A stretch of DNA of 64,000 nt. Source: a virus. Position numbers and translations under genes: made by a program. The stretch lies in the IMG/VR virus record IMGVR_UViG_3300022921_001386; one strand, given 5' to 3'. Shown piece after piece: positions 559 through 37,525 of this stretch. The notes beneath the pieces were generated by a model. That model searched no databases. It had not been told where the DNA came from and worked only from the letters and a program-made list of their open reading frames with translations. The first letter of the stretch is position 1. Each line of letters starts with the position of its first letter.

Positions 559-1923
559 ATGGCAAATAGATTTCCACTAGTAGTAGACACAAATGACGGT
601 AACAGACTGAAAGAAATCCCTAGTGGCGACTCATTAGATTTTTCAAGTGTTGGCATTGCTAACCTAACTAGTCTAAGCGTAAGCGGATCACTAAGCGGTA
701 GTACATTATCTACCACCGGAAACGTTTCCTTAGGCGGTACATTAAATGTAACTGGTGCTAGTACAATAACCACACTGTCAGCAACTACAATGACTGCAAC
801 TTCGCTAACACTCAATGGGAATCTTGTTGTTCCGCAAGTACAAAGTGATTGGACTGAAACAGATACAAACAGTGCTGCATTTATTCTCAACAAACCAGAT
901 CTTCAAGCTATTGACAACCTAGATGATATCGGAGACGTTTTTGTTGCCGATGCTGTTTTAAATGATGTATTAAAATATGACGGAACAAGTTGGCAGGCAT
1001 CACCAGAAGCAGGCGGTATAGGATTTGCTGATTTTAGTGTTGTAACCAATCCAGCAAGCGGTCAAGGTAGTTTGATATATAATGCTGCCGGTGTGTTTAC
1101 ATTTACTCCGGCCGATGCACTAACTACAGGTTCTAATATTAGTTTACTAACCAATGATAGTGAATTTACAACCATTGCTGAGATTAATTCAAACAACTAT
1201 TTACAACAAAGCGATGTTATTGGTAGCGGAAGAATTACAGCTACAGCAGCAAGCGGACAAGTTACACTTACATTTGATGCAACAGGTTTGTTAACAATTG
1301 AAACTGACACACTTGCAACTGTTACAAGCAGAGGTGCAACCACTACAACGGCGCTCGAAGCAGATGCATTTAATCAAGCACCTACAAGTACAAGCACTAA
1401 CACACTAAAAGATGTGAGCATAGAAACACTTGATATTTTAACAAGTATTACAAGTACAGCAGCCAACTTTAGTACAGGCGGTAGTATAAGTGCAAACACA
1501 GGTACTGTCACTGGAAATACAGTAACAGCTCTAAGTACATTAAATGCATCGACAGTTGCAGGAGTTGGATCTATAACGAATACTGCTACAATTTCGGTAA
1601 ACCCAGGAACAAACAATGCTCTTAAGATCGAAAGCGGGAGGCTAGAACTACTAGCAACCACGTTACCACCAACAAGTCCAGTAGCAGGACAAATTTTCTA
1701 TGATGGCGGTGCATTCTACGGATATGTAGGCGACAACGGCAGCGGAAGTGCTGGCGCTGTAATGTTTCCAGCGTTTAACTCAATACTTGGATTACAACTT
1801 CCTGCATTTGAAAATGCTGATTTGCCAAGCGCAGCAGAAGGATCCAATGAAGGAATGATAGCATGGGATTTAACAAATAGTAGTGTTGTAGTATTTAATG
1901 GAACAAGTTGGTCAAACGTATAA
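559..1923 (+). CDS. tail fibre-like structural protein
   Basis: Thr/Ser/Gly-rich beta-repeats, VQSDW..TD...AFILNKP and LDDIGDV motifs typical of tail fibres; late-promoter motif upstream. Confidence 0.65.
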   Translation: MANRFPLVVDTNDGNRLKEIPSGDSLDFSSVGIANLTSLSVSGSLSGSTLSTTGNVSLGGTLNVTGASTITTLSATTMTATSLTLNGNLVVPQVQSDWTETDTNSAAFILNKPDLQAIDNLDDIGDVFVADAVLNDVLKYDGTSWQASPEAGGIGFADFSVVTNPASGQGSLIYNAAGVFTFTPADALTTGSNISLLTNDSEFTTIAEINSNNYLQQSDVIGSGRITATAASGQVTLTFDATGLLTIETDTLATVTSRGATTTTALEADAFNQAPTSTSTNTLKDVSIETLDILTSITSTAANFSTGGSISANTGTVTGNTVTALSTLNASTVAGVGSITNTATISVNPGTNNALKIESGRLELLATTLPPTSPVAGQIFYDGGAFYGYVGDNGSGSAGAVMFPAFNSILGLQLPAFENADLPSAAEGSNEGMIAWDLTNSSVVVFNGTSWSNV

Positions 1924-1961
1924 TACTAGTTTCTGATAAATATGTATAACAGGAGACTAAC

Positions 1962-2663
1962 ATGGCAATTCAAGATATTAATGTAGGATTACTTGCTAAC
2001 GACGGCACAGGCGATGATTTACGAGAAGCATTTATTAAGGTAAATCAAAACTTTGACGAGCTAGATTTAAAAGTATCAGCCGTCACAGAAATCTCAGCAG
2101 AAAATATTGGCGATGCTGGTTACGGAATATTTGCACAAGAAGTTTCAAATACGTTCCAGTTTAGAAAACTATTAGTCGATCCATTATATTCAGATACGAT
2201 GAGTATACGTATTAGTGATGACGGCAACAATGTTTATCTAGCTAGTGCAACTGGGTATACTAGAATAACTGACGGAACTACAAGTGCTGTTGTATCTCCA
2301 ACGACTTTTATTACAATCAATGGTACTGGTGCTGCACAAGCAACAGTAGCAGGCGGCGTTGCCCCTAGTATAACAATAGATAGTTTGCTTTCGAGAGAAA
2401 CAACTCCAACACTTAATGCAACACTAAATGCTAATAGTAATCCTATTACTAACATTACTTCTCTTAATGATATTACTATGGCAGAACTCGAACAAGCGTT
2501 TGAATGGGACTTTGGAGACCTAACAAGAAATAGAACTAGCATCATTGATTTTATTTTGAAATCAGTAGATGTTGACTTTGGTACATCTCAAGATGTATTC
2601 TCTCCTGCAGATGGCACTGCTGATTTTGGAAATAGTAACGCAACATTCGATGAAGCTTTGTAA
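1962..2663 (+). CDS. baseplate/tail structural protein, gp9/gp10-like N-terminus
   Basis: MAIQDINVGLLANDGTGDDLREAFIKVNQNFDEL motif; AGGAG RBS. Confidence 0.7.
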   Translation: MAIQDINVGLLANDGTGDDLREAFIKVNQNFDELDLKVSAVTEISAENIGDAGYGIFAQEVSNTFQFRKLLVDPLYSDTMSIRISDDGNNVYLASATGYTRITDGTTSAVVSPTTFITINGTGAAQATVAGGVAPSITIDSLLSRETTPTLNATLNANSNPITNITSLNDITMAELEQAFEWDFGDLTRNRTSIIDFILKSVDVDFGTSQDVFSPADGTADFGNSNATFDEAL

Positions 2664-2673
2664 GGGGATATAA

Positions 2674-5600
2674 ATGGCACTACCAAGCTGGACTAAAATA
2701 TCAGGATCAGAACTTGCAAGTATACAAGAAAGAACTGATGTTAGCATTGCATTACCGCTAGAAGAAACAAGTGATATAACAGTTACGCTGATATCTGGTG
2801 CATTGCCAACTGGACTTCGTATTAATGATTATCGTATAAAAGGTGTTGCAGTCGAAGTTAGTAAAACCACTGAGTTTGAGTTTGTTTTGAGAGCAAGTAA
2901 TATTGAAGGAATAGCTGACAGAACTTACAAAATCGTAGTTGAAGGAGCCGATGCTCCTGTGTGGCAAACACCCGAAGGTGAACTAGGATTAACTAGAAGT
3001 TTCAGAAATCAATACTGGGTCGATACTCTTAATACCGAGTGGGGAATATATGAATCAAATGCTGGTAGCAGTTGGTTGGCTGTTGATGTTGATGTGTACG
3101 AAACTATTCCGAGTAGAGAAACAGGTAATAGTGGCGACTATGCTTATGTAAGCAGTTTAAAACAGTTTTGGTATAAAGTCGATACACGCTGGTATAGAAT
3201 AAACACAACACAAATACAAGGCATACTTGGTAATGATAAAACACTTGCTATTTCAAGTACTGTGCCTAATCCTAACATAGATGATTTTTGGTTCAACACC
3301 AATAAAAGCAACGACGGATTAAATCTAGTATTAAGATATTGGGACGAAGTTGCAATGGTATGGAAGCCACTAGATTATGTTGTAAGTAAAACACCTCCAA
3401 TATCACCGTTTGAAGATCAGATATGGGTTCACATTTTTGATGATACATTTGACTTTCAAATAAAAGTTTATAATGACAGCGAAAATATTTGGGAACTGGT
3501 TGATGCTACTTATAGTACAACTCCTCCAGATAGACTTAATATTGCTTACTTTATTTTAGACAGCAGCATAGTTGACTTTCAGTTAGAAGCAATAGATAGA
3601 GATTTAACAACTGGACAAAGTCTAAGATATTTTATTGCAGATGAAGACGGAGAGTTGCCTCCAGGTCTGAAACTTACAGAGGATGGAAAAATATCAGGTA
3701 TTGTTGATCCATTATTATCTTTGGATGTGGATGACGCAGCAGGGTATGACACCGGCGAGTACGATACTGTACCATTGGACTTGGTTGTATTGGACGACGA
3801 TGGCTACGATAGTTATTTTTATGACACTACATTTTATGGATTTAGTACACCAACGAGACGTCCAACAAAACTAAATCGCAAGTATACCTTTTCTGTAACA
3901 GTCGAAGATGATACTAGTTTTAGCAAACGTGAGTTTAGTATTTTTGTTGTAGGAGATGATTTCTTACGTGCAGACAATACTATAATGAAAGCTGCCACAG
4001 GATTATTTACAGCAGATAATACATATCTACGCAAACCAGTATGGCTAACATCTGGAAATCTTGGAGTTAAGAGAGCAGAAAACTATGTTACCATCTTCTT
4101 GGATGTATACGATCCAAACTCCTTACTAGGTCAAATAAGCTACAATCAGCAACCATTTAATGACGATGGTACTCCAAGTGTACTACCTCCAGGGTTAGTA
4201 CTTGATGGAATCACAGGAGAACTAGCAGGAACAATACCATATCAACCCGCTGTTAATAGAGAATACAAGTTTACTGTTGAAGCATTGAGACAAGAAGTAG
4301 ATAGCGATGATGTAGTAGAAATAAATATCGGTGTATATGAAGATACACTCACTGGCACATCTCAAATAAAAATAAACAAACTTCCTATTAGTAGGGACGA
4401 CGGTGTCGACGATCTATTAAGCCTCATTGAGCAAGACATAGTTATTGATAATCTAAGTTACACTGTAAGAAGTGTTAACAATGAAAATTCTGAATACGAC
4501 TTATTAAATCTTAGTAGACCTTTAGAGCCAACATACAAAGCTAAACGTATTAAAACTGCATATAATAATGCCATTGGACAGGATTATATATACATACTTG
4601 ATGACGGCGATAATAGAGTAGATGCTTGGAAAAATAAAACACTAAAATATAGTGCATCTGAAGCATATACTTTAGTAGATAATGATAAACAAAACATTCT
4701 TGGAACAACTATTACACGCAAATGGCATACTATGGTAAGATACACTATCGATGCTGGTGATAGTTCAGGAAACTTAGATTTAAACTACGGTGTTGCTAAT
4801 ATAGTTGATACGGGCGATTATGTAGCAGATTTTGAAACTTGGCTAGCAGGCAAAGGGATTGATACTACATACTTGTACAAAAGAGTAAGCTCAACACCTA
4901 CACAACTAATATTTGATATCCCACGTAACTCTATTGTTGAAAATACTATTATGAATCAAAACCTGTTTCATACCGATGACAGTGTGTATGGAAACTTGGA
5001 AATAACTCGTGGGCAACAGTTCTTTAAAGTATTTTTAGATAACACACTGCAACGTGCATTTAATCTATCAAATACGTTAGACGAACAATCAGGTCCGCAG
5101 ATTACATTAGGAGTGTTTAAAGATACACTGATTACTAAAAAAATCGGTGTAACAAATGTTGATACTATAAGCACTATAAAAACATTCACTGTAAATATAT
5201 TAGGAGAAGTTGATAGTACAGTAGCATGGATAACCAAGCCAGACTTGGGTACTATTCCTGCTAATAGAACAAGTTACTTACAACTAGTGGCTAATACTAC
5301 GTTGGCAGGTAGTAATTTAAGATATGATTTAGTTGGAGGAAAGTTGCCCAACGGATTAACACTAAAACGTGATGGCGAAATAGTTGGAAAGCCCAATCAG
5401 TATACAACTGGAACAACATTAGGTTTGACCACTATTGATACTAGAACAACAACATTTGATAATAGCACTACAACCATTGATAGAAAATATGTATTCAAAG
5501 TTCTAGTACGTGATTTGTTTGGTTATAGTAACAGTATACAAGAGTTTACACTAAATGTTACAGATACAGATGATAAAGTATATTCAAATGTGTTTATCAA

Positions 5601-20061: not shown

Positions 20062-20212
20062 TAAGAATCACTGCAACAACTGCGGGCGTCCATCACATTG
20101 TGGCGTTCCATACTATCAAGACTTACAAGACTATAATCAGCCGCCAGTTACAACTAAAATATGTGACCATTGCAGATGCGGCCGCTGCACTACTATAGAG
20201 GATAAAAAATAA
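20021..20212 (+). CDS. small Cys-rich (zinc-finger-like) protein
   Basis: CNNCGRPSHC...CDHCRCGRC; start uncertain (TTG at 20042/20048 possible). Confidence 0.55.
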   Translation: MKTKDTHLSLKDFNKNHCNNCGRPSHCGVPYYQDLQDYNQPPVTTKICDHCRCGRCTTIEDKK

Positions 20213-21075
20213 TGGCTAAAGAAGATTTCGACTTTGATTTTGAGCCTTGGATGGCTGAAGAACTAATCCACAGAAGCGACTGGGAAGAATGGTATGAAGC
20301 TATGCTTGAAATACTTCCACTATGGGATGTAAACACAATACCAAGAGTTGCAGGATTTATTGCACAATGCGGACACGAATCAGGCGGTTTTAGGGTACTA
20401 AGTGAAAACTTAAACTATAGTGCTAAGGCACTCAACACAATCTTTCCAAAATATTTTAAACGTGCAGGAAGAGATGCAAATGAATATCATAGACAACCTG
20501 AAAAAATTGCGAACGTTATTTACGCAAACAGAATGGACAACGGTGATACCGACAGTGGTGATGGCTGGAGATTTAGAGGCGGCGGCATTCTGCAACTTAC
20601 AGGCAGATACAACTATACCGAGTTCGCCGAAGATGTCGAAATGACACCAGAAGAAGCAGTAGACTATGTGCGTACTAAAAAAGGTGCGTTGGATAGTGCT
20701 TGCTGGTTCTGGGATGAAAACAACATCAACAAACACTGCGATGCTATGGACATACTAAAAATGACCAAACGTATCAACGGCGGCACTATTGGACTGGAAG
20801 ATCGTAAAAAGCATTGGGCACACGCATTAGATGTGCTAGGTGGCGATATGGAAATTGAACCGGAAGAAGAAAAAGAGTTAAACACAAATCAAACAATACG
20901 TCAAGGTTCACGTGGTCCATTAGTACAAGAAGTACAAGAAATACTGGGCATTGCACCAGCTGATGGCATCTTTGGACCAGGCACTGCTAGACTTGTCAAA
21001 GAATGGCAATCGGCAAACGGATTAGTTGCCGATGGTATTGTAGGACCAAACACGCTGGGAAAGTTATTAGGGTAG
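20212..21075 (+). CDS. endolysin: GH19 glycoside hydrolase with C-terminal peptidoglycan-binding domain
   Basis: FIAQCGHESGGF, ENLNYS, RGGG.LQLTGR.NY, INGG..GL..R; ADGIFGPGT...ADGIVGPNT. Confidence 0.92.
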   Translation: MAKEDFDFDFEPWMAEELIHRSDWEEWYEAMLEILPLWDVNTIPRVAGFIAQCGHESGGFRVLSENLNYSAKALNTIFPKYFKRAGRDANEYHRQPEKIANVIYANRMDNGDTDSGDGWRFRGGGILQLTGRYNYTEFAEDVEMTPEEAVDYVRTKKGALDSACWFWDENNINKHCDAMDILKMTKRINGGTIGLEDRKKHWAHALDVLGGDMEIEPEEEKELNTNQTIRQGSRGPLVQEVQEILGIAPADGIFGPGTARLVKEWQSANGLVADGIVGPNTLGKLLG

Positions 21076-26224: not shown

Positions 26225-26903
26225 AACTAAAAAACTACACTATGGCAAATACTTTTATAAACTTGCCATAGTGAACTGTTGTGCAAGATATTTTAGAACA
26301 GAGTTTCAAACAGACGGAAGTTTGAAATATGCTAGACGCAAACTTGATGAAGTTAACAAACATTATGTTCCGGCAACTCATGATCGGAACATTGAAGTAC
26401 CATTAGCAACAAGCTATAACGATATTATTCCTGTTGAGCATTTTTGGGATGCTATTGATATTTACAGACATTTACTCAAACACACTGATTATAAAATAAG
26501 ATGCGAACATAATCAATTAATGATTTACAGTAACAATAGAAAAATGTTAGTAGATTTAGGAAACAAACTTAGACAAAAATACACTGTTTTTTGGGAGCCA
26601 AATCCTGAAACTATACAAGCACTGAGTTCTGAAAAAAATGCTATCATAGTAAACAAACCTCCGCAGTATGAATATAAAGTTACTCTTGGAAATAAAAAAG
26701 GTGTTGCAGCACTTGCCGAGTGGATAGAACGTAATCCAAAACTTGCATCAATGGGTATAAGAGCTAAAGAAGGTTGTAGAAATGAAGATTATGTGTATGG
26801 ATATTATTTTCATGTTAGAGATCTCAAAACGCTGTTGATAATACAAATGATAGCTGGTGATAATATACGCCGCATAGATAAATTTGTTTATATCAAACAA
26901 TAG
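26211..26903 (+). CDS. hypothetical protein
   Basis: 230 aa ORF overlapping clpA end. Confidence 0.65.
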   Translation: MRLYETKKLHYGKYFYKLAIVNCCARYFRTEFQTDGSLKYARRKLDEVNKHYVPATHDRNIEVPLATSYNDIIPVEHFWDAIDIYRHLLKHTDYKIRCEHNQLMIYSNNRKMLVDLGNKLRQKYTVFWEPNPETIQALSSEKNAIIVNKPPQYEYKVTLGNKKGVAALAEWIERNPKLASMGIRAKEGCRNEDYVYGYYFHVRDLKTLLIIQMIAGDNIRRIDKFVYIKQ

Positions 26904-27289: not shown

Positions 27290-29968
27290 ATGAAACATTT
27301 TATTAGTATAATAATAGACAACGATGGAATAAATGAAAGCAGAGATTTCGTCTTAGACACTGTCTTAAATACAGCTAACATTGGGCTATTAGAAAATACT
27401 ATGGAATATGAAATATACGAAAGTGAAAATAACACACAAGTATTAAGTATTCCTATTGCACGTGAACTAAACGAAAAACAACAAGCATATCTTGCAAAAA
27501 AACTTGCCAATAAACTATTTGACAAAGGTTATAATAACTTTGATATTGAGTTTAGTCTTAGTGAATCAAGCCTTAATGAAGCAGATCCACAAGCTGTAGC
27601 AGCAGTAGCTAGAACAGATGACAGAGGACGCAGTAGAATAGGCACAGATGCCGGTGACGGATTAGTATGGATTGTAGGCAATACTAATGCTCTTGTAAGA
27701 GTTAGTCCAAATGATCCAAGAGTAGCAGCTCAAAGAGCTGCTATATCTCAACCGCAAGCAGCAGCAGCACCAGCAGCAGCAGCACCAGCAGCAGCACCAG
27801 CAGCAGCAGCAGGTAATGGTACTTTACGCAAAGGCAGTAGAGGCCCAGCAGTTAGAAAGCTACAACTAGATTTAGGTGTTCAGCCTGCAGACGGCGTATT
27901 TGGGCCAGCAACTGAAGCAGCCGTTAAAGATTTTCAACAGCGTATGATGCCAGGTGAAGCAGCAGACGGTATTGTAGGACCAAAAACTAATACAGCTATA
28001 CAACAATCGGCAGCAATAGATACAGGTGATAATCCAGAGATTGAAAAGTCTGATCCTCGCTCTCAGTTTGCTGCACTAAGTGGATTTGCTACTAGTAGAA
28101 GAGGCGGCATTGCCAATAATCCATCGCAAGTAGATGCTATCAAAGAACTACAAGCTGAGTTAAAACGTAGAGGATTGCTTGATGGCGAAGTTGACGGCAA
28201 ATATGGTCCTCAAACAAGAGCAGCAGTAAGAGCATTCCAAGAACAAAATGATTTGTATGTAGATGGAGACGCAGGCCCAAGAACTATTCAAAAGTTGATG
28301 CAGCGTGAAGACCCTAACATCACAATGACGCCGTTAGATGAGCCACAAGATCAAGCTGCTGCTGATGGCAGAATAAGTGGAGCAGATCAAATAGACGTTG
28401 ACAATGATCAAGAAGTAGATCAAGATGCAAACTTAGGAACAGGACCTGAACGTATTCAAGGTGCATTACCTCAAAATATAACAGATCAATATAATCAAGC
28501 AACAGCAGATAAAGATTATATTGCAGTGCTAAGACTCGTTGATCAATACCAAGTTCTTTATAATAGATTTGCTGAGATAGAAAACCCAGAAGGCGAAGGG
28601 ACGCTGTATGATTGGCTTACAGCAAAAGCAGCAGATGACAGTTCTGATTTTCCTGGAGCAGAAGAACCAGCAGTTGCTAATCAACAACAAGCACCGGCAG
28701 GAGTTGCTGTAGGTGATGTTGCAACACAAGAACAATCAGATACACTAAAAGCAATAAATCCAACAAACTATCCTATGACCGGCGAAAAACTTAATCAAGC
28801 AGATGTAGATGCACTCAATGATACAGATGACCTTGCCTCAGATACAATAGCTGCATTAGATGCAAACCCAACGCAACAAGGCGAACTTAGTGCAACAGAC
28901 CAAGCACAAACTGGAACAGCAGCAAATGATCAACAACAAGATGCAGCAGGATCAGTAGTAGATTGGGAAGAACTTGATACAAACGCAGCACCTGAAGGTT
29001 ATACACTGTTTATTAAACGACAAGAAACACCTGTATTTACATATGGTTTAGAAGGTGGCGAACCAGTTGACACAGAATACGCTACTCAGCGAGAAGCAAT
29101 AGCAGCAGCAGCAAATGATCAACAGGCAGCAGAGGCTCCAGAACTTGAAATATTTGACAATCAGCCTAGAGGCTATGGCATGGAGCAAGGTAAAGTAATA
29201 GTAAAACGTGGCGAAAGATATTTTGAGGTTGATGTTAGTAGAACAAGAAACTTTAATGGTCAGTCAAGATATCGTGGAAGCTCTTTACCAGGATATGAAT
29301 ATGACGCTGATAATCCACAAGCACCTAGCAGAACAAATGCAGACGCTGTATATTTTGATCCGGCAACCTTTGATGATGTTACAACAGACGGAAACACTGT
29401 AGAACCAAGACCAACTGCCAGCGGCGTACAAGGCGACTATGCTAGAAATGATTGGGATCAAAAATACGGCGGAACACACAACGCAGACGGAACTCGTAAA
29501 GAAGCAAACGAAAGTGTTGAACCAATGCCCAAAGGTGCATTTATGGTTGAGGATCGTGCTATATGGCGTTCGCTGTATGAAAGCACACACTACACAAACG
29601 GCAAGCCTCGTCCACGTACATTTATTACAGAAAGCAAACGTGCTATTCCAGAAATAACATTTGAAGATGATGACAAGTTCTTTGAAAACTACGGTGTTAT
29701 GTGGTTCAATGAAGACGATGTTATAGACGAAGCAGAGTATCAAGGACGTAAAGTTAAACTTGGCAAGCCTATGGCTGGCGATGTTAAAAAGTTTAAAGTA
29801 TATGTTAAGAATCCAAAGGGCAATGTAGTCAAAGTTAACTTTGGACAAAAAGGTGCTAAAATCAAAAAGAACAATCCAGAACGTAGACGCAGTTTCCGTG
29901 CAAGACACAACTGCGATAATCCTGGACCTAGACATAAAGCAAGATATTGGAGTTGCAGAAAATGGTAA
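27290..29968 (+). CDS. modular protein with two peptidoglycan-binding domains and a basic C-terminal domain
   Basis: LRKGSRGPAVRKLQ...ADGVFGPATEAAV; LQAEL...VDGKYGPQTRAAVRAFQ; C-terminal KFKVYVKNPKGNVVKVNFG...ARYWSCRKW. Confidence 0.75.
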   Translation: MKHFISIIIDNDGINESRDFVLDTVLNTANIGLLENTMEYEIYESENNTQVLSIPIARELNEKQQAYLAKKLANKLFDKGYNNFDIEFSLSESSLNEADPQAVAAVARTDDRGRSRIGTDAGDGLVWIVGNTNALVRVSPNDPRVAAQRAAISQPQAAAAPAAAAPAAAPAAAAGNGTLRKGSRGPAVRKLQLDLGVQPADGVFGPATEAAVKDFQQRMMPGEAADGIVGPKTNTAIQQSAAIDTGDNPEIEKSDPRSQFAALSGFATSRRGGIANNPSQVDAIKELQAELKRRGLLDGEVDGKYGPQTRAAVRAFQEQNDLYVDGDAGPRTIQKLMQREDPNITMTPLDEPQDQAAADGRISGADQIDVDNDQEVDQDANLGTGPERIQGALPQNITDQYNQATADKDYIAVLRLVDQYQVLYNRFAEIENPEGEGTLYDWLTAKAADDSSDFPGAEEPAVANQQQAPAGVAVGDVATQEQSDTLKAINPTNYPMTGEKLNQADVDALNDTDDLASDTIAALDANPTQQGELSATDQAQTGTAANDQQQDAAGSVVDWEELDTNAAPEGYTLFIKRQETPVFTYGLEGGEPVDTEYATQREAIAAAANDQQAAEAPELEIFDNQPRGYGMEQGKVIVKRGERYFEVDVSRTRNFNGQSRYRGSSLPGYEYDADNPQAPSRTNADAVYFDPATFDDVTTDGNTVEPRPTASGVQGDYARNDWDQKYGGTHNADGTRKEANESVEPMPKGAFMVEDRAIWRSLYESTHYTNGKPRPRTFITESKRAIPEITFEDDDKFFENYGVMWFNEDDVIDEAEYQGRKVKLGKPMAGDVKKFKVYVKNPKGNVVKVNFGQKGAKIKKNNPERRRSFRARHNCDNPGPRHKARYWSCRKW
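27758..27811 (+). repeat. GCA/CCA tandem repeat encoding an Ala-Pro linker
   Basis: gcagcagcagcaccagcagcagcagcaccagcagcagcacca... Confidence 0.8.
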
Positions 29969-30494: not shown

Positions 30495-30695
30495 ATGGAC
30501 ATCAAAGACTTACAGCACCTAGCAGGAATACGCAATAAGTTTACCGGGTACACACCTTATGTTCCTGAAAACATGAGTATCACAGGTACTGAAAAAGCTA
30601 AGATACAACGCAAGAAAAAAATACAACCTGGCACTGAAGAATGGTTTAAACTATGGTTTAGTCAGCCGCATCTAACAGGCGAAAAACCAACATGA
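30495..30695 (+). CDS. hypothetical protein
   Basis: GGAGG RBS; MDIKDLQHLAGI...IQPGTEEWFKLWF. Confidence 0.65.
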   Translation: MDIKDLQHLAGIRNKFTGYTPYVPENMSITGTEKAKIQRKKKIQPGTEEWFKLWFSQPHLTGEKPT

Positions 30696-31150
30696 GAATG
30701 CAAGAAATAACCGAAGGACGCCTTTGGGCACAAACAAACGATTATTTAAATATGGAGCCGCCTCCGGCTGTATATGCCAAGTATGCTGTGTCGCATTCGC
30801 AGTTTCCAGAACTTAAAGTTATTAAAGGAAATATACAGGCGCTTGTTGATAACAAACAAGATTTGGCACAACTTCAACAGTGGCTCAACAGTAATGGGTA
30901 TGATGCAGGAGCAGTAGACGGAACATGGGGTCCACAGACTCGTGCTGCATTGCAAGCGTTTAATCAACATTTTGTAAATTCATATAATCGTGCTAAACAA
31001 CAAAGAGATTTAGCTAGATTCTTTAGAGTAGTTGATGCTGTTATGTTTGTTGCTAATCCGGCTGCTTTTGTTACAAATAAAGTTCGTGGAGCAGCAACAG
31101 ATGCAGTAGCAGGTACAGTACAAAACGCATTTCAAGGAAAAACCAGTTGA
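30692..31150 (+). CDS. peptidoglycan-binding domain protein
   Basis: MRMQEITE leader; LQQWL...GYDAGAVDGTWGPQTRAALQAF. Confidence 0.7.
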   Translation: MRMQEITEGRLWAQTNDYLNMEPPPAVYAKYAVSHSQFPELKVIKGNIQALVDNKQDLAQLQQWLNSNGYDAGAVDGTWGPQTRAALQAFNQHFVNSYNRAKQQRDLARFFRVVDAVMFVANPAAFVTNKVRGAATDAVAGTVQNAFQGKTS

Positions 31151-32043
31151 AGATTGAACACTTAGATGAAGGCGTAGGACGTATTATAAAAGGTGTAAAC
31201 ACTACGCCCGATGTCGGAGTGAATCAAACCAGTATAGAAGCAGGTAAGTTTGGAAACAAAGTAGACAAAGATGGACGTCCTCCTACACTTAGTAGTGCAG
31301 TTAAAGGTAAAAGTACAAATGTACTGTTTAACTTAGGACTTACCGAAGGTATAAAGTTGCGTTTAGAACGTGATAAGAATATTGATGTATTGCATATTAT
31401 GGACACCAATGACAAGCAACGTATTGAAGTGCGTGGTAAAAAAGGTTACGAAAGCGGTGGCTATGATTCAAAGGATAAACTACACCAAGTATTAGACCGT
31501 GTGGGCAAAGCTGCTAATATAAGTGAACTTATGAACGGTGAAGTAGTAAGTATCAATCCTAACCATCCACAAGGCACAAGAGCAATACGCACTGCTAGAG
31601 ATGTGCTACAAACTGAAAGTGCTCGCAGCATAATGGAACAGGCCATTATAGAAGGTGGACATAGTTTAGACGACTTAGACAAGCCTACACCAACTATAGC
31701 AGAGCTTGTTAAAATGCACGGTGTACCTGCTAAACAAATACTAAAACAACTTGAAATGGGCATCGAAGCAGAATATGAACACACTAGTGATTTTGAAGTT
31801 GCTAAAGAAATAGCATTAGATCACATTGCCGAAGATCCGAGTTATTATGACAAACTAAAATTTATAGAAAACTTTGCTGATGGTAAGAAAAAAGAAACTA
31901 TAGAAGAAACTATTCGCAAGCAAGGTGACAAATATGTTATCTATAGCAAAGATGGTAAAAAGAAACTTGGCACATACAGCAGTCGCAAGGCTGCTGAAAA
32001 ACGTTTAGGACAAATAGAGTATTTTAAACATGCTGGTAAGTGA
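31147..32043 (+). CDS. modular hypothetical protein (putative polyprotein)
   Basis: TTG start; distinct modules separated by (L/I)xE sites, incl. MGIEAEYEHT....AKEIALDH..EDP.YY.KL. Confidence 0.7.
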   Translation: MKIEHLDEGVGRIIKGVNTTPDVGVNQTSIEAGKFGNKVDKDGRPPTLSSAVKGKSTNVLFNLGLTEGIKLRLERDKNIDVLHIMDTNDKQRIEVRGKKGYESGGYDSKDKLHQVLDRVGKAANISELMNGEVVSINPNHPQGTRAIRTARDVLQTESARSIMEQAIIEGGHSLDDLDKPTPTIAELVKMHGVPAKQILKQLEMGIEAEYEHTSDFEVAKEIALDHIAEDPSYYDKLKFIENFADGKKKETIEETIRKQGDKYVIYSKDGKKKLGTYSSRKAAEKRLGQIEYFKHAGK

Positions 32044-32227
32044 GATTACAGAAAACTTTGCTGACGGTAAAGTAAAAGGCAAAAGCAGACCAGGACGAGT
32101 AAAGAAGTCTGGTGCTAGTTGCAATGGTAGTGTTACAGCACTACGCAAACGTGCTAAAAATGCAAGTGGTGAAAAGGCTAAAATGTATCACTGGTGCGCT
32201 AATATGAAAAGTGGTAAAAAGAAATGA
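32030..32227 (+). CDS. small basic hypothetical protein
   Basis: MLVSEITE leader, then NFADGK...HWCANMKSGKKK. Confidence 0.65.
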   Translation: MLVSEITENFADGKVKGKSRPGRVKKSGASCNGSVTALRKRAKNASGEKAKMYHWCANMKSGKKK

Positions 32228-32337
32228 CACAAGAAGAACTAGCACACTACATAGCAAAGTATAAAGAACATGAAGTGCAAAGAGCTAGTACTAACGAACG
32301 CAATGCGTATTGGAGAGAATACAATGAAAATAAATGA
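32224..32337 (+). CDS. small hypothetical protein (37 aa, not in ORF track)
   Basis: ATGA-coupled; MTQEELAHYIAKYKEHEVQRASTNERNAYWREYNENK. Confidence 0.4.
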   Translation: MTQEELAHYIAKYKEHEVQRASTNERNAYWREYNENK

Positions 32338-32503
32338 ACTATTAGAAACAACTAGTGCAGGAAGCGTAGCAGCAGTAGCAGCACCAATCGGTGGTATGCA
32401 ATCTCGTCAACCTAAAAACCCAGATGGTACTGCTAAAAATGCATTAGACAGTGATACATTAATGGCTGGAAAGAAAAAGAAGACTAAGAGTAAAAAGGCA
32501 TAA
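32324..32503 (+). CDS. small hypothetical protein
   Basis: GGAG RBS; MKINELLETTSAGSVA... Confidence 0.65.
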   Translation: MKINELLETTSAGSVAAVAAPIGGMQSRQPKNPDGTAKNALDSDTLMAGKKKKTKSKKA

Positions 32504-32533
32504 ATACTTAAACTACTAGTATGGAGCCAATCA

Positions 32534-32896
32534 ATGACTAAAAAAACAAATGAAGGTCTTGCAGACTTAGCTGATGTAGCTGAGCGCGACCACGAAGTAC
32601 AAATGGCACGAAGCGATTTGTACAAACTTGCAAAATATTCTATCAAACTACACGAGATGCTAAAAAATGTAAGTGAAGCAGAAGGTATAGAAGGATGGCA
32701 GCAAGCTAAGATTACCAAAGCAGCAGATTATATTTCAAGTGTATATCACGCATTGGATTATGACACAAAGTTTGAAAGTGTAAATGTAGCAGAAGATGCA
32801 AAGCCAAAAACAATAAAACGTACATTATCTGATTCTCAAGTTAAATCTTACAAAGGCAGTTTATCTGAAAAACTTTCAACTATAACAGGGAGATAA
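32534..32896 (+). CDS. hypothetical, putative head-packaged protein
   Basis: ATAAATA and GGAG upstream; DHEVQMARSDLY...EGWQQAKITKAADY. Confidence 0.7.
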   Translation: MTKKTNEGLADLADVAERDHEVQMARSDLYKLAKYSIKLHEMLKNVSEAEGIEGWQQAKITKAADYISSVYHALDYDTKFESVNVAEDAKPKTIKRTLSDSQVKSYKGSLSEKLSTITGR

Positions 32897-32898
32897 TC

Positions 32899-33105
32899 AT
32901 GAGAATACGTGAGCTATTTGAATCAGCAACTCTATGCAACGAATGCGGAAATCCTAGTTGGAAAACACTCGAGTCAGATGATCTTGATGAAGGTAAAAAG
33001 AAAAAGAAATCAACCAAGAAAAAAGGCAGCCACGGTAAAGTGTGCTGGAAGGGCTATCGCAGAGGTAAAGGTGATAGTTGTCATAAAGTAAAAGGGGACG
33101 GTTAA
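32899..33105 (+). CDS. small basic Cys-containing protein
   Basis: MRIRELFE leader; CNECG; LDE then Lys-rich CWKGY module. Confidence 0.65.
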   Translation: MRIRELFESATLCNECGNPSWKTLESDDLDEGKKKKKSTKKKGSHGKVCWKGYRRGKGDSCHKVKGDG

Positions 33106-33746
33106 TGGACTTTAATGCACTACAACACAAACTATTTGCAATGGATCCAGTTGATCCTAAAGAAGATATAGCAAGAATGAAAGCACAAGCTGCCGCTCCA
33201 GCAGTTGAAAGCAATAGCATTGACTATATTAACGAGAGTGCTATAGTTCCTGAAGGTTCCTTAAAAATGGATCGTGATTATAGTGTAACAGATTTTGCTG
33301 CACTAGCAGGTGTTACTATAACTGAATCACAAAGAACTGGCAGTGCTGGACAAGCAAAAGCCAATGCACCGATGCCGGCGGCAAAACCAGGGCGTACTAC
33401 ACATCCATTAAAAGATAAACTAGTAGGTGAATGCGCTGATGATACAGTTCGCATAGAAAAACTTGAAGATAAAATTAAATCACTAGAAGCTATTGTTATA
33501 AAACTAGCTGCAAAAGCAGGATTAGTTGAACGTGAACTTAGTAACGACGAAGAAAAAGAAAAAGAACGTCTTGTTAAGGGCATGAAGAAAAACAAAAGCG
33601 ATTTCAAAGATCGTTACGGAGATGATGCAGAAGCAGTTATGTATGCTACTGCTACAAAACGTGCAAAACAAACCGCAAGTGTGGATTATTCAGATGATAT
33701 TAAAACAAGATTGTATGATGCGTTAAATAAGAAAATGGGTGTATAA
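33105..33746 (+). CDS. modular hypothetical protein
   Basis: Modules incl. HPLKDKLVGE and E.LVKGMKK....FK.RYG....VMYATATK.AK. Confidence 0.7.
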   Translation: MDFNALQHKLFAMDPVDPKEDIARMKAQAAAPAVESNSIDYINESAIVPEGSLKMDRDYSVTDFAALAGVTITESQRTGSAGQAKANAPMPAAKPGRTTHPLKDKLVGECADDTVRIEKLEDKIKSLEAIVIKLAAKAGLVERELSNDEEKEKERLVKGMKKNKSDFKDRYGDDAEAVMYATATKRAKQTASVDYSDDIKTRLYDALNKKMGV

Positions 33747-36409
33747 TGAAACTAAACGAGTTTATCGTTGAAAATGTTTTAAAACAATTTAGGACAGCAG
33801 CAGGTCCAGGACTTTCAATGAATAATCCCGGTAATCCCGATGGCAGTCATGTTGTAGAAATCAAACGAGCTTTAAAGAAGCATACTCTTGTAACAGGAAA
33901 AACACAAAATGGCAGTTTTCAAACTGCTGGGCCTGCATGGTCAGGTGATGAGTCAGGAACTTGGGATCAAACATTAGACGATGCTATTAAAACTTGGAAA
34001 AATAGTATCAACATACAAGTTAATAATCCAAACGAACTAAACACTGCTTTAGGAGAACTACGAGAAAAAGATATTCGCTATCTTATTAGTACTAGTCTTT
34101 TTCCAGCTGGAAGCGGATCTATGGCAGGATTGCTACAAATAGGCAACAGTGGCACAACTCCTGGAAATCAAAATACTACTGCTACCTGGGAAGGACAAGA
34201 AGTTGATGTAAATCATGTTATTGATACTCCAGTTGGACAAGTAACTGATACAGCACAAATGATTGCTGCTATTGGCTTTAGTGGCTGGTATTTTATTCTA
34301 CAAGAACTACTTAACAAACGTGAAGAAAACACACAAGGAATACAACAAAGTCGAAACGCAAGACTAGCCGAACTCAATAGAATGATGGTAACCATCTATG
34401 AAAGACAAAATGAGCTTGGATCTAGATGGCTAGAGGAAGTATGGAAAAGAGGAGTTGTCCTTAAAATAAGTGACGGACTGACTGCTACTCTTGCAAATGG
34501 CGAGGAAATGGAGTTTTCACCGCCAAACTGGCGCAATGGGTCAATGCGTGAAGAAGCACAACAACTTTACGAATATTTTAGACAACTTGCAACAGGATTA
34601 ATAGCCAAGTTTAAACAACAAGACTCCGAAGCTGATGCAGCAAGAAATGCTCCAGATGTAGTTGATACACCTACATTAGATGCAACTACTACAACAGCAT
34701 GGGTTACTGCAATGAATCAGGCATTCGAAAATAGTATTGGTGCAGGTATTATACCAGGGGGTCGAGGATTTGGATATGATCGTGAAAAGATCAGCGATCT
34801 AATGAATCAACTAAACACAGCAGGAGATTGGGACCAAGTTGAGGAAGCATACGATGCACAGTTTGAAGATCTATCAACACAGCTAGTTGATGAACTTAGC
34901 GAAGCTGATTATCAAGCCCTAGTTATAAGACGACTTACTGCATTAAGAAGAATAAATCCAAAACTGTTGTATGCATCTATTGTTTGGGGACAAGACACTG
35001 ATAGCATGGATGTTAGTATTGATGATGACACCTATACTGTTGTTAAACAGTTAGATAGTAATGGGTTTCCTGTGGTCAACAAAGGCAGACGTGAAGTTAA
35101 CGATGTATTAGTTATTGATGATGCATTGAAGGCAGCGATTGAACTATCTGGTGGAACTGTTCCTGATCTAAACATTGAAGCTAATGAAGAACACCGTGCA
35201 ATGGGCGGCGCTATTATTGTAACAGTAATAAACGATCGTGTTCCAGAAATGACAGCGTTTTATACAATGCAAGATCCGTTTAGTGAATCACAGTTTAAAT
35301 CATTAGGTCCGAGACGGTTGCTAGGTATAAGTGAAGGTGCTGCGGTGCTTGTAGCAAATGGTTCAAGTGAAGAATCTGTTGCACAATGGATACACGGACA
35401 AGTTATAGACGATAGACTTTGGCTTATTGGCGATGAATCTCAAGATATCGAAGGTGCTGCTAATGTTCATTTTGATAGTAGGTATAGAGACGAAAGTGAA
35501 CAATCAGACGGATTCGAAAGCGATGATGATGATGTTGAAAATACAGAACTCGAAACTGATCTTATAAACAGATTATTCAGTCCTGATGCACGAAATGCTG
35601 CATTGGCAGAACTTGGACAAATATCTCCAGACACAGAACTACAAAGAGTATATGACAGAGTTTATCGCGGATATCAAAGTACACACGGCAAATGGCTAGA
35701 CGAAGATATTACACAAGTAAGCGAATTAGAAAACTATGTAGAAGGTGATCAAAACAATATTCCAGATGGCTTTAAATCTATCATGGGTAAAATAGGCATT
35801 CCATATGCTGCACCAACACTGATGGCCCAAATATTTAAAGAAAGTATGGAACCTGGATGGTTTGGTTGGGGAACTGATGATAATCTATTAGGTGCGTTGA
35901 TTGCACAAATAAGAAATAGAGAAGATTATTTACAAGTAAATGAAAGATACAAAGCAAAATACGGTAGCGACTTAATCGACGATGTTGATGCAGAGGATAG
36001 TAGTTGGAAACTCAACAATGATGGTGAATTTGTTGAAGCACTTAAACTTGCTATTGGAGAAGATGTTGATATTACACGAGAAGGTATAAGCACGCCTGCT
36101 ATGAGAGCATTTTCTACAATGCGTAACGAACCTACAGAAAATAATATTGCAGCCTTTAGAGCAAAGATTAGTAAATCTAACTTTGATAGTGTTGGCGCAG
36201 TAATGTATATACTAGATGAAATCAATAATATTGTATTAGCAACTCCAGGTGCATCACCGGAACAACAAGAAGAGTTTTTACAAATCATTGCAGATTTTGA
36301 AGAAACATTTGAAGGTGAAAGAGCTGAGCGTAGAGGATATAGTGCGCCAAAGTTTGAAGATATAATTGCTGACTGGAAACTAAACAACAGCGATCAATGG
36401 TTTCAATAA
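33746..36409 (+). CDS. large protein with annexin-like repeats and a degenerate N-terminal peptidoglycan-binding-like segment
   Basis: MKLNEFIVE leader; GWGTDDNLLGALIAQIRNREDYLQVNERYKAKYGSDLIDDVDAE resembles the annexin repeat. Confidence 0.6.
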   Translation: MKLNEFIVENVLKQFRTAAGPGLSMNNPGNPDGSHVVEIKRALKKHTLVTGKTQNGSFQTAGPAWSGDESGTWDQTLDDAIKTWKNSINIQVNNPNELNTALGELREKDIRYLISTSLFPAGSGSMAGLLQIGNSGTTPGNQNTTATWEGQEVDVNHVIDTPVGQVTDTAQMIAAIGFSGWYFILQELLNKREENTQGIQQSRNARLAELNRMMVTIYERQNELGSRWLEEVWKRGVVLKISDGLTATLANGEEMEFSPPNWRNGSMREEAQQLYEYFRQLATGLIAKFKQQDSEADAARNAPDVVDTPTLDATTTTAWVTAMNQAFENSIGAGIIPGGRGFGYDREKISDLMNQLNTAGDWDQVEEAYDAQFEDLSTQLVDELSEADYQALVIRRLTALRRINPKLLYASIVWGQDTDSMDVSIDDDTYTVVKQLDSNGFPVVNKGRREVNDVLVIDDALKAAIELSGGTVPDLNIEANEEHRAMGGAIIVTVINDRVPEMTAFYTMQDPFSESQFKSLGPRRLLGISEGAAVLVANGSSEESVAQWIHGQVIDDRLWLIGDESQDIEGAANVHFDSRYRDESEQSDGFESDDDDVENTELETDLINRLFSPDARNAALAELGQISPDTELQRVYDRVYRGYQSTHGKWLDEDITQVSELENYVEGDQNNIPDGFKSIMGKIGIPYAAPTLMAQIFKESMEPGWFGWGTDDNLLGALIAQIRNREDYLQVNERYKAKYGSDLIDDVDAEDSSWKLNNDGEFVEALKLAIGEDVDITREGISTPAMRAFSTMRNEPTENNIAAFRAKISKSNFDSVGAVMYILDEINNIVLATPGASPEQQEEFLQIIADFEETFEGERAERRGYSAPKFEDIIADWKLNNSDQWFQ

Positions 36410-37086
36410 TAGTGGACGAGTACGATTTAGACGAGCACGAACTTTATCTAAAATATCCACAACATCACAAATGGTGGAATAAACTTTATCTAGCAGAAAC
36501 CATGGGCTATAGTTGTGGTCCAGGGGGTGTAAGAATACCCAGCACAGGCGAATATGTAATACGTCCTATATACAATCTTATAGGCATGGGTGTGTGTACA
36601 ACTATAAAAGTATTAAAACAAGGTGATTGTACCAGCACACCTCCGGGTTACTTTTGGTGCGAATACTTAGAAGGCAATCATTACAGTGCTACATACGAAA
36701 ATATCAACGGTACATGGAAACCTTTACACTGCTGGCAAGGATTTAACCGGAAATCAAATGTTGTAAAGTTTAATAAATGGATACGCAGTGATTATACACC
36801 AACCATTCCCAAAGCTATTGCTAATATAAATAATGTAAAGTATATCAACATTGAATACAAAGGCGACAATCCTATTGAGTTGCATTTTCGTCCTAGTGGC
36901 AATCCAGATGGTACATCGATTAGTAAGTGGAATGAATATATTCCTATATGGCATGATACTACACAGTTTGAAAAAGACAAACTAGTTGACCAAGGATACA
37001 CTTGGATAGATAATCCGTATGATAACTGGATGGAAGACATGGAGCCGTATTTGAACGAAAGGCGGCTCGGGTACTATGTACGGTAG
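36397..37086 (+). CDS. hypothetical protein, possible ATP-grasp fold
   Basis: YVIRP..N..GMG, FWCEYLEG.HYS, INIEY....IELHFR resemble ATP-grasp motifs. Confidence 0.5.
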   Translation: MVSIIVDEYDLDEHELYLKYPQHHKWWNKLYLAETMGYSCGPGGVRIPSTGEYVIRPIYNLIGMGVCTTIKVLKQGDCTSTPPGYFWCEYLEGNHYSATYENINGTWKPLHCWQGFNRKSNVVKFNKWIRSDYTPTIPKAIANINNVKYINIEYKGDNPIELHFRPSGNPDGTSISKWNEYIPIWHDTTQFEKDKLVDQGYTWIDNPYDNWMEDMEPYLNERRLGYYVR

Positions 37087-37513
37087 AATTGATTTATCCA
37101 AAGTAAAATACAAACTAGATCCTGACATTTTTTTGCACAAACCTAGTTGGAAAGAAGCAGCACACGTATACAATGTCTATTGTAAATACAAAAACTTTGA
37201 TAGTGTGTTTCCATTGTATAGTGATGATATTTTACAGAATGATTTTCATTGTTTGTATATAGACAATAAACTTGTAGCATGGGAACAAACAAGAACATAT
37301 ACAAATGACAAAGTTGCATTTAGTGATCAGTTTGCATGGGATTACAGCAATCCAGAAGATAGAGTTGGTTGGAGATTTAGCTACCACGTTCCGGCTTATT
37401 ACAAGTCACAAGGTTATAAGTATCTATACTTAGGAGATCACCACGACTATAAAAGTCGTATTCAAGGATACGAAATATTAGGTCCAATAAAAACACTTGA
37501 CAACAAAACATAA
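37076..37513 (+). CDS. Ate/Bpt C-terminal-like (GNAT-fold) aminoacyl-transferase
   Basis: KLVAW...FAWDY......G......YYKSQGYKYLYLG....YKSRIQGYEIL resembles ATE_C. Confidence 0.5.
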   Translation: MYGRIDLSKVKYKLDPDIFLHKPSWKEAAHVYNVYCKYKNFDSVFPLYSDDILQNDFHCLYIDNKLVAWEQTRTYTNDKVAFSDQFAWDYSNPEDRVGWRFSYHVPAYYKSQGYKYLYLGDHHDYKSRIQGYEILGPIKTLDNKT

Positions 37514-37525
37514 CTACTGTATATT
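37497..37525 (+). promoter_or_regulatory. sigma70-like promoter
   Basis: TTGACA-N17-TATATT upstream of the DsbA-like/polymerase genes. Confidence 0.65.

Follow-up and report, generated by a model that had tools for sequence, protein, structure and literature searches.

We analysed a stretch of 64,000 nucleotides (hereafter the window) from the IMG/VR virus record IMGVR_UViG_3300022921_001386, and in particular an open reading frame at 33746–36409 on the plus strand, upstream of the polB operon. The gene encodes a soluble, acidic protein of 887 amino acids (98.8 kDa, isoelectric point 4.4), and an earlier note made from the sequence alone had read it as a phage protein with annexin-like repeats, packaged in the head and ejected to bind the host inner membrane in a calcium-dependent way. 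Annexins are eukaryotic calcium- and membrane-binding proteins. All domains of the 887-residue protein described below are given as residues, followed by their positions on the plus strand of the window.

This DNA comes from an uncultured jumbo phage that belongs to the T4 superfamily. The window encodes a T4-type PolB, a clamp loader, ThyA, a ClpA/B-like ATPase, a DnaJ-like gene and tail-fibre-like genes, and the closest cultured phages by PolB (41–49% identity) are Sinorhizobium Phosso, Agrobacterium Atu_ph07, Vibrio 2.275.O and E. coli 121Q/Turkey3-like phages, i.e., jumbo phages of 350–490 kb. Within IMG/VR, the closest record is a fragment of 68 kb, estimated by CheckV to be 19% complete. 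Within its phage clade, the annexin-repeat gene is conserved and a fixed feature: a word-indexed protein search recovered 16 close metagenomic homologues, each of ~890 residues, 31–98% identical and without functional names, while a profile search of 1.8 billion cluster representatives (clustered at 50%) returned 33 proteins at E < 1e-30, mostly full-length. Synteny holds down to 22–24% identity, with the same two small genes before the annexin-repeat gene and small genes, polB and a cytidylyltransferase gene after it. Neither a transmembrane or hydrophobic segment (maximum Kyte–Doolittle value 1.16) nor a signal peptide was found in the 887-residue protein, a PHROGs search placed it in no family, and the viral structures of BFVD gave no match at E ≤ 1e-3. 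Rows named “internal virion protein” did appear among the BFVD results, with probabilities of at most 0.41; these were too weak and were left unused.

The clearest annexin signal lies in repeat C (residues 688–771; 35807–36058). The Pfam Annexin model (PF00191) matches residues 707–752 (E 1e-5, 26 bits for a gathering score of 25), scores a near-identical copy in a homologue at 28.4 bits, and also matches 9 of 17 close homologues. Searched against the PDB with phmmer, the protein returned annexins only (A4/A5, with A4 best; E 7e-8 to 1e-3), always over residues 690–752, and the alignment places G707-W-G709-T710 on the annexin KGxGT loop and E750 on the capping glutamate of the annexin A4 “SELS”. 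Repeat C thus keeps the GxGT...E pattern of a predicted type II calcium site, whose columns are well conserved across the 41 family members over which all conservation counts given here were taken (G709 in 35, T710 in 33, D/N711 in 35 and E750 in 37). An AlphaFold model of the whole protein (mean predicted local distance difference test score, pLDDT, 80.6; predicted template modelling score, pTM, 0.36) points the same way: in a Foldseek search, the top 49 PDB matches were all annexins (E from 7.6e-5, probability 0.97–1.00), and modelled repeat C superimposes on annexin A13a with a root-mean-square deviation (rmsd) of 2.3 Å over 75 residues (Z 8.8). The earlier note had placed an annexin repeat at 35822–36002 (residues 693–752) and had proposed Pfam, AlphaFold and Foldseek comparisons. 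These agree with it, with PF00191 above its cutoff and the five-helix annexin fold, a right-handed superhelix, present in the model, and the segment lies within a real annexin repeat.

Repeat A (residues 313–399; 34682–34942) escapes Pfam and is detected by profile–profile comparison only. In hhalign, it aligns with repeat C at a probability of 97.7% (E 2.4e-12) and with a profile built on the 41 canonical repeats taken out of Pfam-verified annexins at 97.8% (E 7e-13), so that the weaker copy which the note had suspected at 34697–34912 (residues 318–389) stands as well. In the profile search, Pfam-verified multi-repeat annexins were best matched at this region. The corresponding loop reads G-F-G-Y-D345, followed by E383, with D345 kept in 36 of 41 members and E383 in 33; distant family members carry GTDE where the 887-residue protein has GYDR. 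Repeat B (residues 600–687; 35543–35806) is a degenerate annexin-fold repeat without a GxGT loop, recognised from the predicted structure. The model of residues 601–771 fits the annexin A2 fusion 6t58_A as a rigid body (Z 9.9, rmsd 4.0 Å, 129 residues), and that of residues 600–771 fits repeats I–II of Capsicum annexin 24 (Z 8.9, rmsd 4.6 Å, 142 residues), i.e., repeat B is annexin-like in the model and predicted to pack against repeat C as in a two-repeat annexin module. A further weak copy had been proposed at 35600–35710 (residues 619–655); the predicted fold bears it out, whereas its sequence signal in hhalign is not significant (E 2e-3 to 4e-3, probability 8–14%). A CARD-repeat protein (P0070) that matched region B in the profile search was set aside as a helical-repeat artefact.

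No fourth annexin repeat was supported by sequence in residues 454–561 or 776–887 (hhalign E ≥ 0.037), and whole-core superpositions gave rmsd values of ~21 Å, i.e., no compact four- (or eight-) repeat core disc was recovered. Given these poor superpositions, the missing fourth repeat, and the 200-residue insert between repeat A and repeats B and C, this is not a classical four-repeat annexin. It shares with annexins A4, A5, A2 and A13 (PF00191) the five-helix repeat of ~70 residues, the GxGT loop of repeat C with an acidic cap ~39 residues on, a second homologous repeat (A), and probably, judging from the model, the packing of two repeats into one module (B and C). Unlike them, it lacks the four-repeat disc, has an unrelated domain of 200 residues between A and B/C, has no calcium loop in repeat B, is fused to a peptidoglycan-binding domain and a phage leader, and is encoded by a phage. 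A variable number of repeats, fusion to other domains and departure from the four-repeat rule are likewise found in bacterial annexins (PMC3894181). As a side observation, the profile search also returned a family of ~225–255-residue proteins (among P0059–P0084) in which a transmembrane helix at the N-terminus precedes two annexin-like repeats. P0063, P0072 and P0074 match Pfam Annexin at E 1e-9 to 1e-5, and the family looks like membrane-anchored prokaryotic mini-annexins.

Upstream of the annexin repeats, residues ~20–118 (33803–34099) form a basic domain (isoelectric point 8.3) predicted to adopt the three-helix fold of PG_binding_1, with a beta-hairpin inserted at residues 47–63. A separate AlphaFold2 model of residues 1–310 (pLDDT 86, pTM 0.60) was compared with 48,161 PDB representatives using VIA, and the top 15 matches were all peptidoglycan-binding domains, with unrelated rows starting at Z 4.4. 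The best of the named matches was the SleB N-domain (6tci_A; Z 10.5, rmsd 1.9 Å, 73 of 73 residues), together with phiKZ gp144 (Z 9.2), the AP3 endolysin (Z 9.1), CtpB and several L,D-transpeptidases. Other comparisons gave less: the Pfam model PG_binding_1 (PF01471) gave no match to the domain even at E up to 10, a Foldseek search of the PDB with the N-terminal model returned nothing, and hhalign against the window's own PG_binding_1 segments gave a weak match (E 3.4e-4, probability 38%). Since all 15 top structural matches are peptidoglycan-binding domains and the weak profile match agrees with them, we consider the degenerate peptidoglycan-binding-like segment that had been noticed at the N-terminus to be real at the level of the predicted fold, even though Pfam does not recognise it. 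Its core motif “DG.W...L..AI..WK” parallels the “DG.fG..T..AV..FQ” of PG_binding_1, and the three-helix fold is that of the SleB N-domain (6tci), phiKZ gp144 (3bkh) and the AP3 endolysin (5nm7). The domain differs from PG_binding_1 endolysins in being too diverged for Pfam, in its inserted hairpin and in the lack of an attached catalytic lytic domain, none of which was detected in the 887-residue protein by Pfam, Foldseek or VIA.

The protein begins with MKLNEFIVE (residues 1–9; 33746–33772), a putative capsid-targeting propeptide with a predicted cleavage site after Glu9 (I7-V8-E9 / N10). The leader had been singled out in the earlier note and is indeed conserved, following the pattern M-(K/R)-(L/V)-x-(E/D/Q)-h-(I/L)-x-E across the family: M1, K/R2 and E9 are kept in 41 of 41 members, and E/D/Q5 and I/L7 in 39 each. 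Over the 887 residues, I7-x-E9 is the sole [LI]xE site kept in ≥60% of members, and no conserved (L/I)xE cleavage site was found in the interior of the protein. The T4 internal proteins IPII and IPIII start with MKTYQEFIAE (read from AF158101). In T4, capsid loading requires no more than the first 10 residues, of which residues 8 and 10 guide cleavage by the prohead protease gp21 (PMC9026906). The leader of the annexin-repeat protein (MKLNEFIVE/N) closely resembles this T4 leader (MKTYQEFIAE/A) and is one residue shorter. The T4 internal proteins IPI, IPII and IPIII, as well as Alt, are loaded through a capsid-targeting sequence and trimmed by gp21 (PMC9026906, PMC3012670).

Leaders of this type also occur on five neighbouring genes, all within 30692–33105 (+). 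These start at 30692 (MRMQEITE, with a PG_binding_1 domain at E 3.1e-10), 31147 (MKIEHLDE), 32030 (MLVSEITE), 32324 (MKINELLE) and 32899 (MRIRELFE). Within the window, the strict leader pattern is confined to this cluster, and the minus strand has none. In related contigs, this place is taken by other cassettes with a leader (MKIREVTEE, MRFREIIE). As with the T4 internal proteins, leader-bearing genes are clustered as variable cassettes and the cargo differs between related phages. A Peptidase_S77 protease of the T4 gp21 type is encoded by four of the four nearest cultured relatives by PolB, and genes beside it start with MKLVELFE and MSKLEQLLKE in Vibrio 2.275.O, MLKDIFE and MSKLEKLLKE in Turkey3, and MRASELFE in Phosso. 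We also observed that in the head modules of Vibrio 2.275.O, Turkey3, Phosso and Atu_ph07 the genes for the prohead protease, the scaffold and small core proteins start with short leaders whose last residues are (L/I/F)-x-E, e.g., MSTKLTE, which suggests that these head modules share a cleavage logo.

A second protein provides an independent view of this architecture. Another uncultured phage (JGI 3300033182) is related through a PolB with 83% identity, and at the same locus (1901–4330 of its own contig) it encodes P0077. This protein of 809 residues starts with MRKYLDLLNE, a leader of ten residues, and contains a canonical PG_binding_1 domain (E 2.4e-17) as well as two annexin repeats that are likewise canonical (Annexin E 1.4e-13). 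Like the 887-residue protein, P0077 lies upstream of small genes and polB and combines leader, peptidoglycan-binding and annexin modules; unlike it, P0077 has another domain order and spacing, and its domains are canonical enough for Pfam. Identity between the two proteins is 32–44% and limited to the annexin repeats. Because no similarity is detectable outside these repeats, we regard P0077 as an alternative cassette and not as an orthologue, and the presence of all three modules in two different proteins at one locus argues that the combination of leader, wall-binding domain and annexin repeats is functional.

The remainder of the 887-residue protein consists of three domains outside the annexin and peptidoglycan-binding folds. 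Residues ~150–300 (34193–34645) form a helical domain with no assignable fold (helices 169–195, 203–217, 225–238 and 267–300), for which generic, weak helical-bundle matches alone were found (Z 4.4 or less). The alpha/beta domain inserted between repeats A and B (residues 400–595; 34943–35530) shows the strongest conservation within the family, with invariant P473, Y506, G521, D556 and L560; hhalign found no annexin likeness in its sequence, and a search of the ESM Atlas with residues 396–600 gave no usable match. The C-terminal segment (residues 776–887; 36071–36406) is a helical repeat of ARM/HEAT-like type with generic structural matches, i.e., Kap123 (Z 8.9, rmsd 3.2 Å, 92 residues) and CNOT9 (Z 8.0), and is the most variable part in the alignment of close homologues.

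The annexin-repeat gene belongs to a tightly packed gene run headed by a gene at 27290–29968 (+). The 892-residue product of this gene has two PG_binding_1 domains (E 1.9e-28) and, at its C-terminus, a phrog_7595 module; paralogy of the annexin-repeat protein with this protein was considered and ruled out (BLASTP E ≥ 2.9). Directly upstream of the annexin-repeat gene lie two genes (32534–32896 and 33105–33746, +) whose N-termini, MTKK.NEGLADLAD..AERDHEVQMAR and MDFNALQHKLFAMDP.DP, hardly vary within the clade, also where identity of the annexin-repeat protein is down to 22%, and one homologue of these two genes has a DUF3008 domain. Directly downstream, two overlapping genes at 36397–37513 (+) close the cluster, one encoding 229 residues (phrog_3577) and the other 145 residues with no family match. 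A near-consensus sigma-70-like promoter (TTGACA-17-TATATT, 11 of 12 positions) is predicted at 37497–37525 (+), just ahead of a small gene and polB, and this predicted promoter marks the operon boundary between the annexin gene cluster and the polB operon. Across the window, promoter and terminator consensus scans were at chance level, and no enrichment of TATAAATA was found. The T4-late-promoter-like motif KATAAATA occurs at 529, 1935, 6593, 18730, 19905, 26903, 36825 and 61855, in eight of eight cases on the coding strand and in several cases 19–28 nt before the start codons of tail-fibre-like genes, with a total count not above chance; the match at 26903 precedes the 26915–37513 gene run.

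Peptidoglycan is periplasmic and not cytoplasmic, and free calcium in the cytoplasm is very low; the high calcium that annexin repeats require is found outside the cytoplasm, particularly in saline water. The 887-residue protein has no signal peptide or transmembrane segment, yet it carries a domain for a periplasmic ligand and calcium-needing repeats; together with the leader evidence, this makes capsid loading, clipping and ejection the most economical account. Beyond the domain assignments, we infer every step of this account. The leader would dock the protein into the prohead core, and a gp21-type prohead protease would remove it after Glu9. The mature protein would ride in the capsid and be ejected at infection, which is how a protein without a signal peptide or transmembrane segment could reach the periplasm. 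There, the peptidoglycan-binding domain would hold the cell wall, calcium-loaded annexin repeats would bind anionic phospholipid of a host membrane, and this double grip may tether the entry site, or make it more stable, while the genome is delivered. By analogy with T4, the reading as a head-packaged ejection protein, which the earlier note had put forward, gains indirect support from the likeness of the leader, the sole conserved (I/L)xE site, the leader-sharing neighbours and the prohead genes of the relatives. The same note had set the action at the inner membrane; the peptidoglycan-binding domain, in a protein with neither signal peptide nor transmembrane segment, points instead to the periplasm, and not specifically to that membrane. 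Overall, we tentatively favour a capsid-loaded, protease-trimmed and ejected cargo that binds the cell wall and, via calcium, anionic membrane, at a likelihood that falls a little short of even.

Several observations weigh against this account. In the window, the annexin-repeat gene adjoins replication genes and not a recognised head module, and six related IMG/VR fragments (16–68 kb) showed no prohead protease and no Gp23/capsid gene, which, for fragments of this kind, is uninformative. At 99 kDa and an isoelectric point of 4.4, the cargo would be large and acidic compared with T4 IPII and IPIII (100 and 193 residues). Two repeats are annexin by sequence and a third by fold only, and they do not form a four-repeat core; repeat A of the 887-residue protein has a tyrosine in place of the motif threonine; and the geometry between domains is uncertain, as expressed by the pTM of 0.36.

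The best-surviving alternative is an accessory of lysis or egress. Such a protein would stay unpackaged, build up in the cytoplasm, pass like an endolysin through holin lesions into the periplasm and bind peptidoglycan there, while its annexin repeats aggregate or destabilise membranes and so assist envelope breakdown in a spanin-like way. Eukaryotic annexins do aggregate membranes, PG_binding_1 is typical of endolysins, and the PHROG matches of the neighbouring genes are all “endolysin” through that domain; the window also has an endolysin-like gene at 20212–21075, and the 887-residue protein would need neither a signal peptide nor a transmembrane segment to take this route. We nevertheless judge this explanation unlikely, since it accounts neither for the invariant N-terminal M-K-x-x-E-h-(I/L)-x-E leader nor for the same leader on head-module genes of the relatives, and no catalytic lytic domain was detected.

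The position of the gene could instead be taken at face value. A place immediately upstream of polB that is kept down to 22–24% identity, with ClpA/B-like, DnaJ-like, clamp-loader and ThyA genes nearby, would suit a cytoplasmic scaffold working with the adjacent replication or DNA-modification genes, in which the annexin and peptidoglycan-binding folds are reused as protein–protein or membrane-tethering modules. The sigma-70-like promoter at 37497–37525, however, splits the annexin cluster from the polB operon, and both the calcium-site residues and the peptidoglycan-binding fold are conserved despite the low calcium and lack of peptidoglycan in the cytoplasm; with the leader again left without explanation, we hold such a scaffold to be distinctly improbable. 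Least probable of all is a tail-, baseplate- or fibre-associated component gripping wall and membrane from outside the particle during penetration. In its favour, jumbo phages are known to have virion-associated proteins that bind peptidoglycan, with phiKZ gp144 one of the fold matches here, and tail-fibre-like genes lie in the same window. Against it, Pfam, PHROGs, Foldseek and BFVD revealed no domain of a tail, baseplate or fibre, and the leader type fits the prohead-core proteins of the relatives and not tail proteins.

Loading through a capsid-targeting sequence is already known; what is new here is the type of cargo and the annexin architecture. A dedicated survey of annexins in 2014 listed none in viruses (Kodavali et al., PMC3894181). 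Bacterial annexins are rare, and their distribution is patchy. We found no phage-encoded annexin in published full text, and tblastn searches of 50,697 GenBank phage records (INPHARED) gave no match to the whole 887-residue protein or to the double annexin repeat of P0077. Likewise, no homologue and no annexin of any kind was found in Vibrio 2.275.O, Atu_ph07, Phosso or Turkey3, where positive controls worked. In its fullest form, the ejected-cargo reading would make this the first virus-encoded annexin and a capsid-loaded, trimmed ejection protein found in jumbo phages of the sea or of salt marshes. It would bridge peptidoglycan and anionic membrane in a calcium-rich periplasm to build or stabilise the genome-entry site, and the pair of peptidoglycan-binding and annexin domains would be a cargo module that can be exchanged while its locus stays fixed. 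We put this forward as a possibility that is, taken as a whole, rather doubtful.

The predicted cut after Glu9 and the predicted calcium ligands E750 and E383 are directly checkable. A conserved phage family in which annexin repeats occur together with a domain for cell-wall binding and a T4-like tag widens the known range of the annexin fold, and is a candidate for carrying annexin genes from one aquatic microbe to another. T4 IPI* inhibits a host restriction enzyme (PMC3012670), whereas the domains of the 887-residue protein, if the analogy holds, would target the envelope; this hints at a class of injected phage proteins that may act on the envelope of the host cell. The family would also be a test case for how far the T4 system of “tag, load, clip, inject” reaches into jumbo phages.

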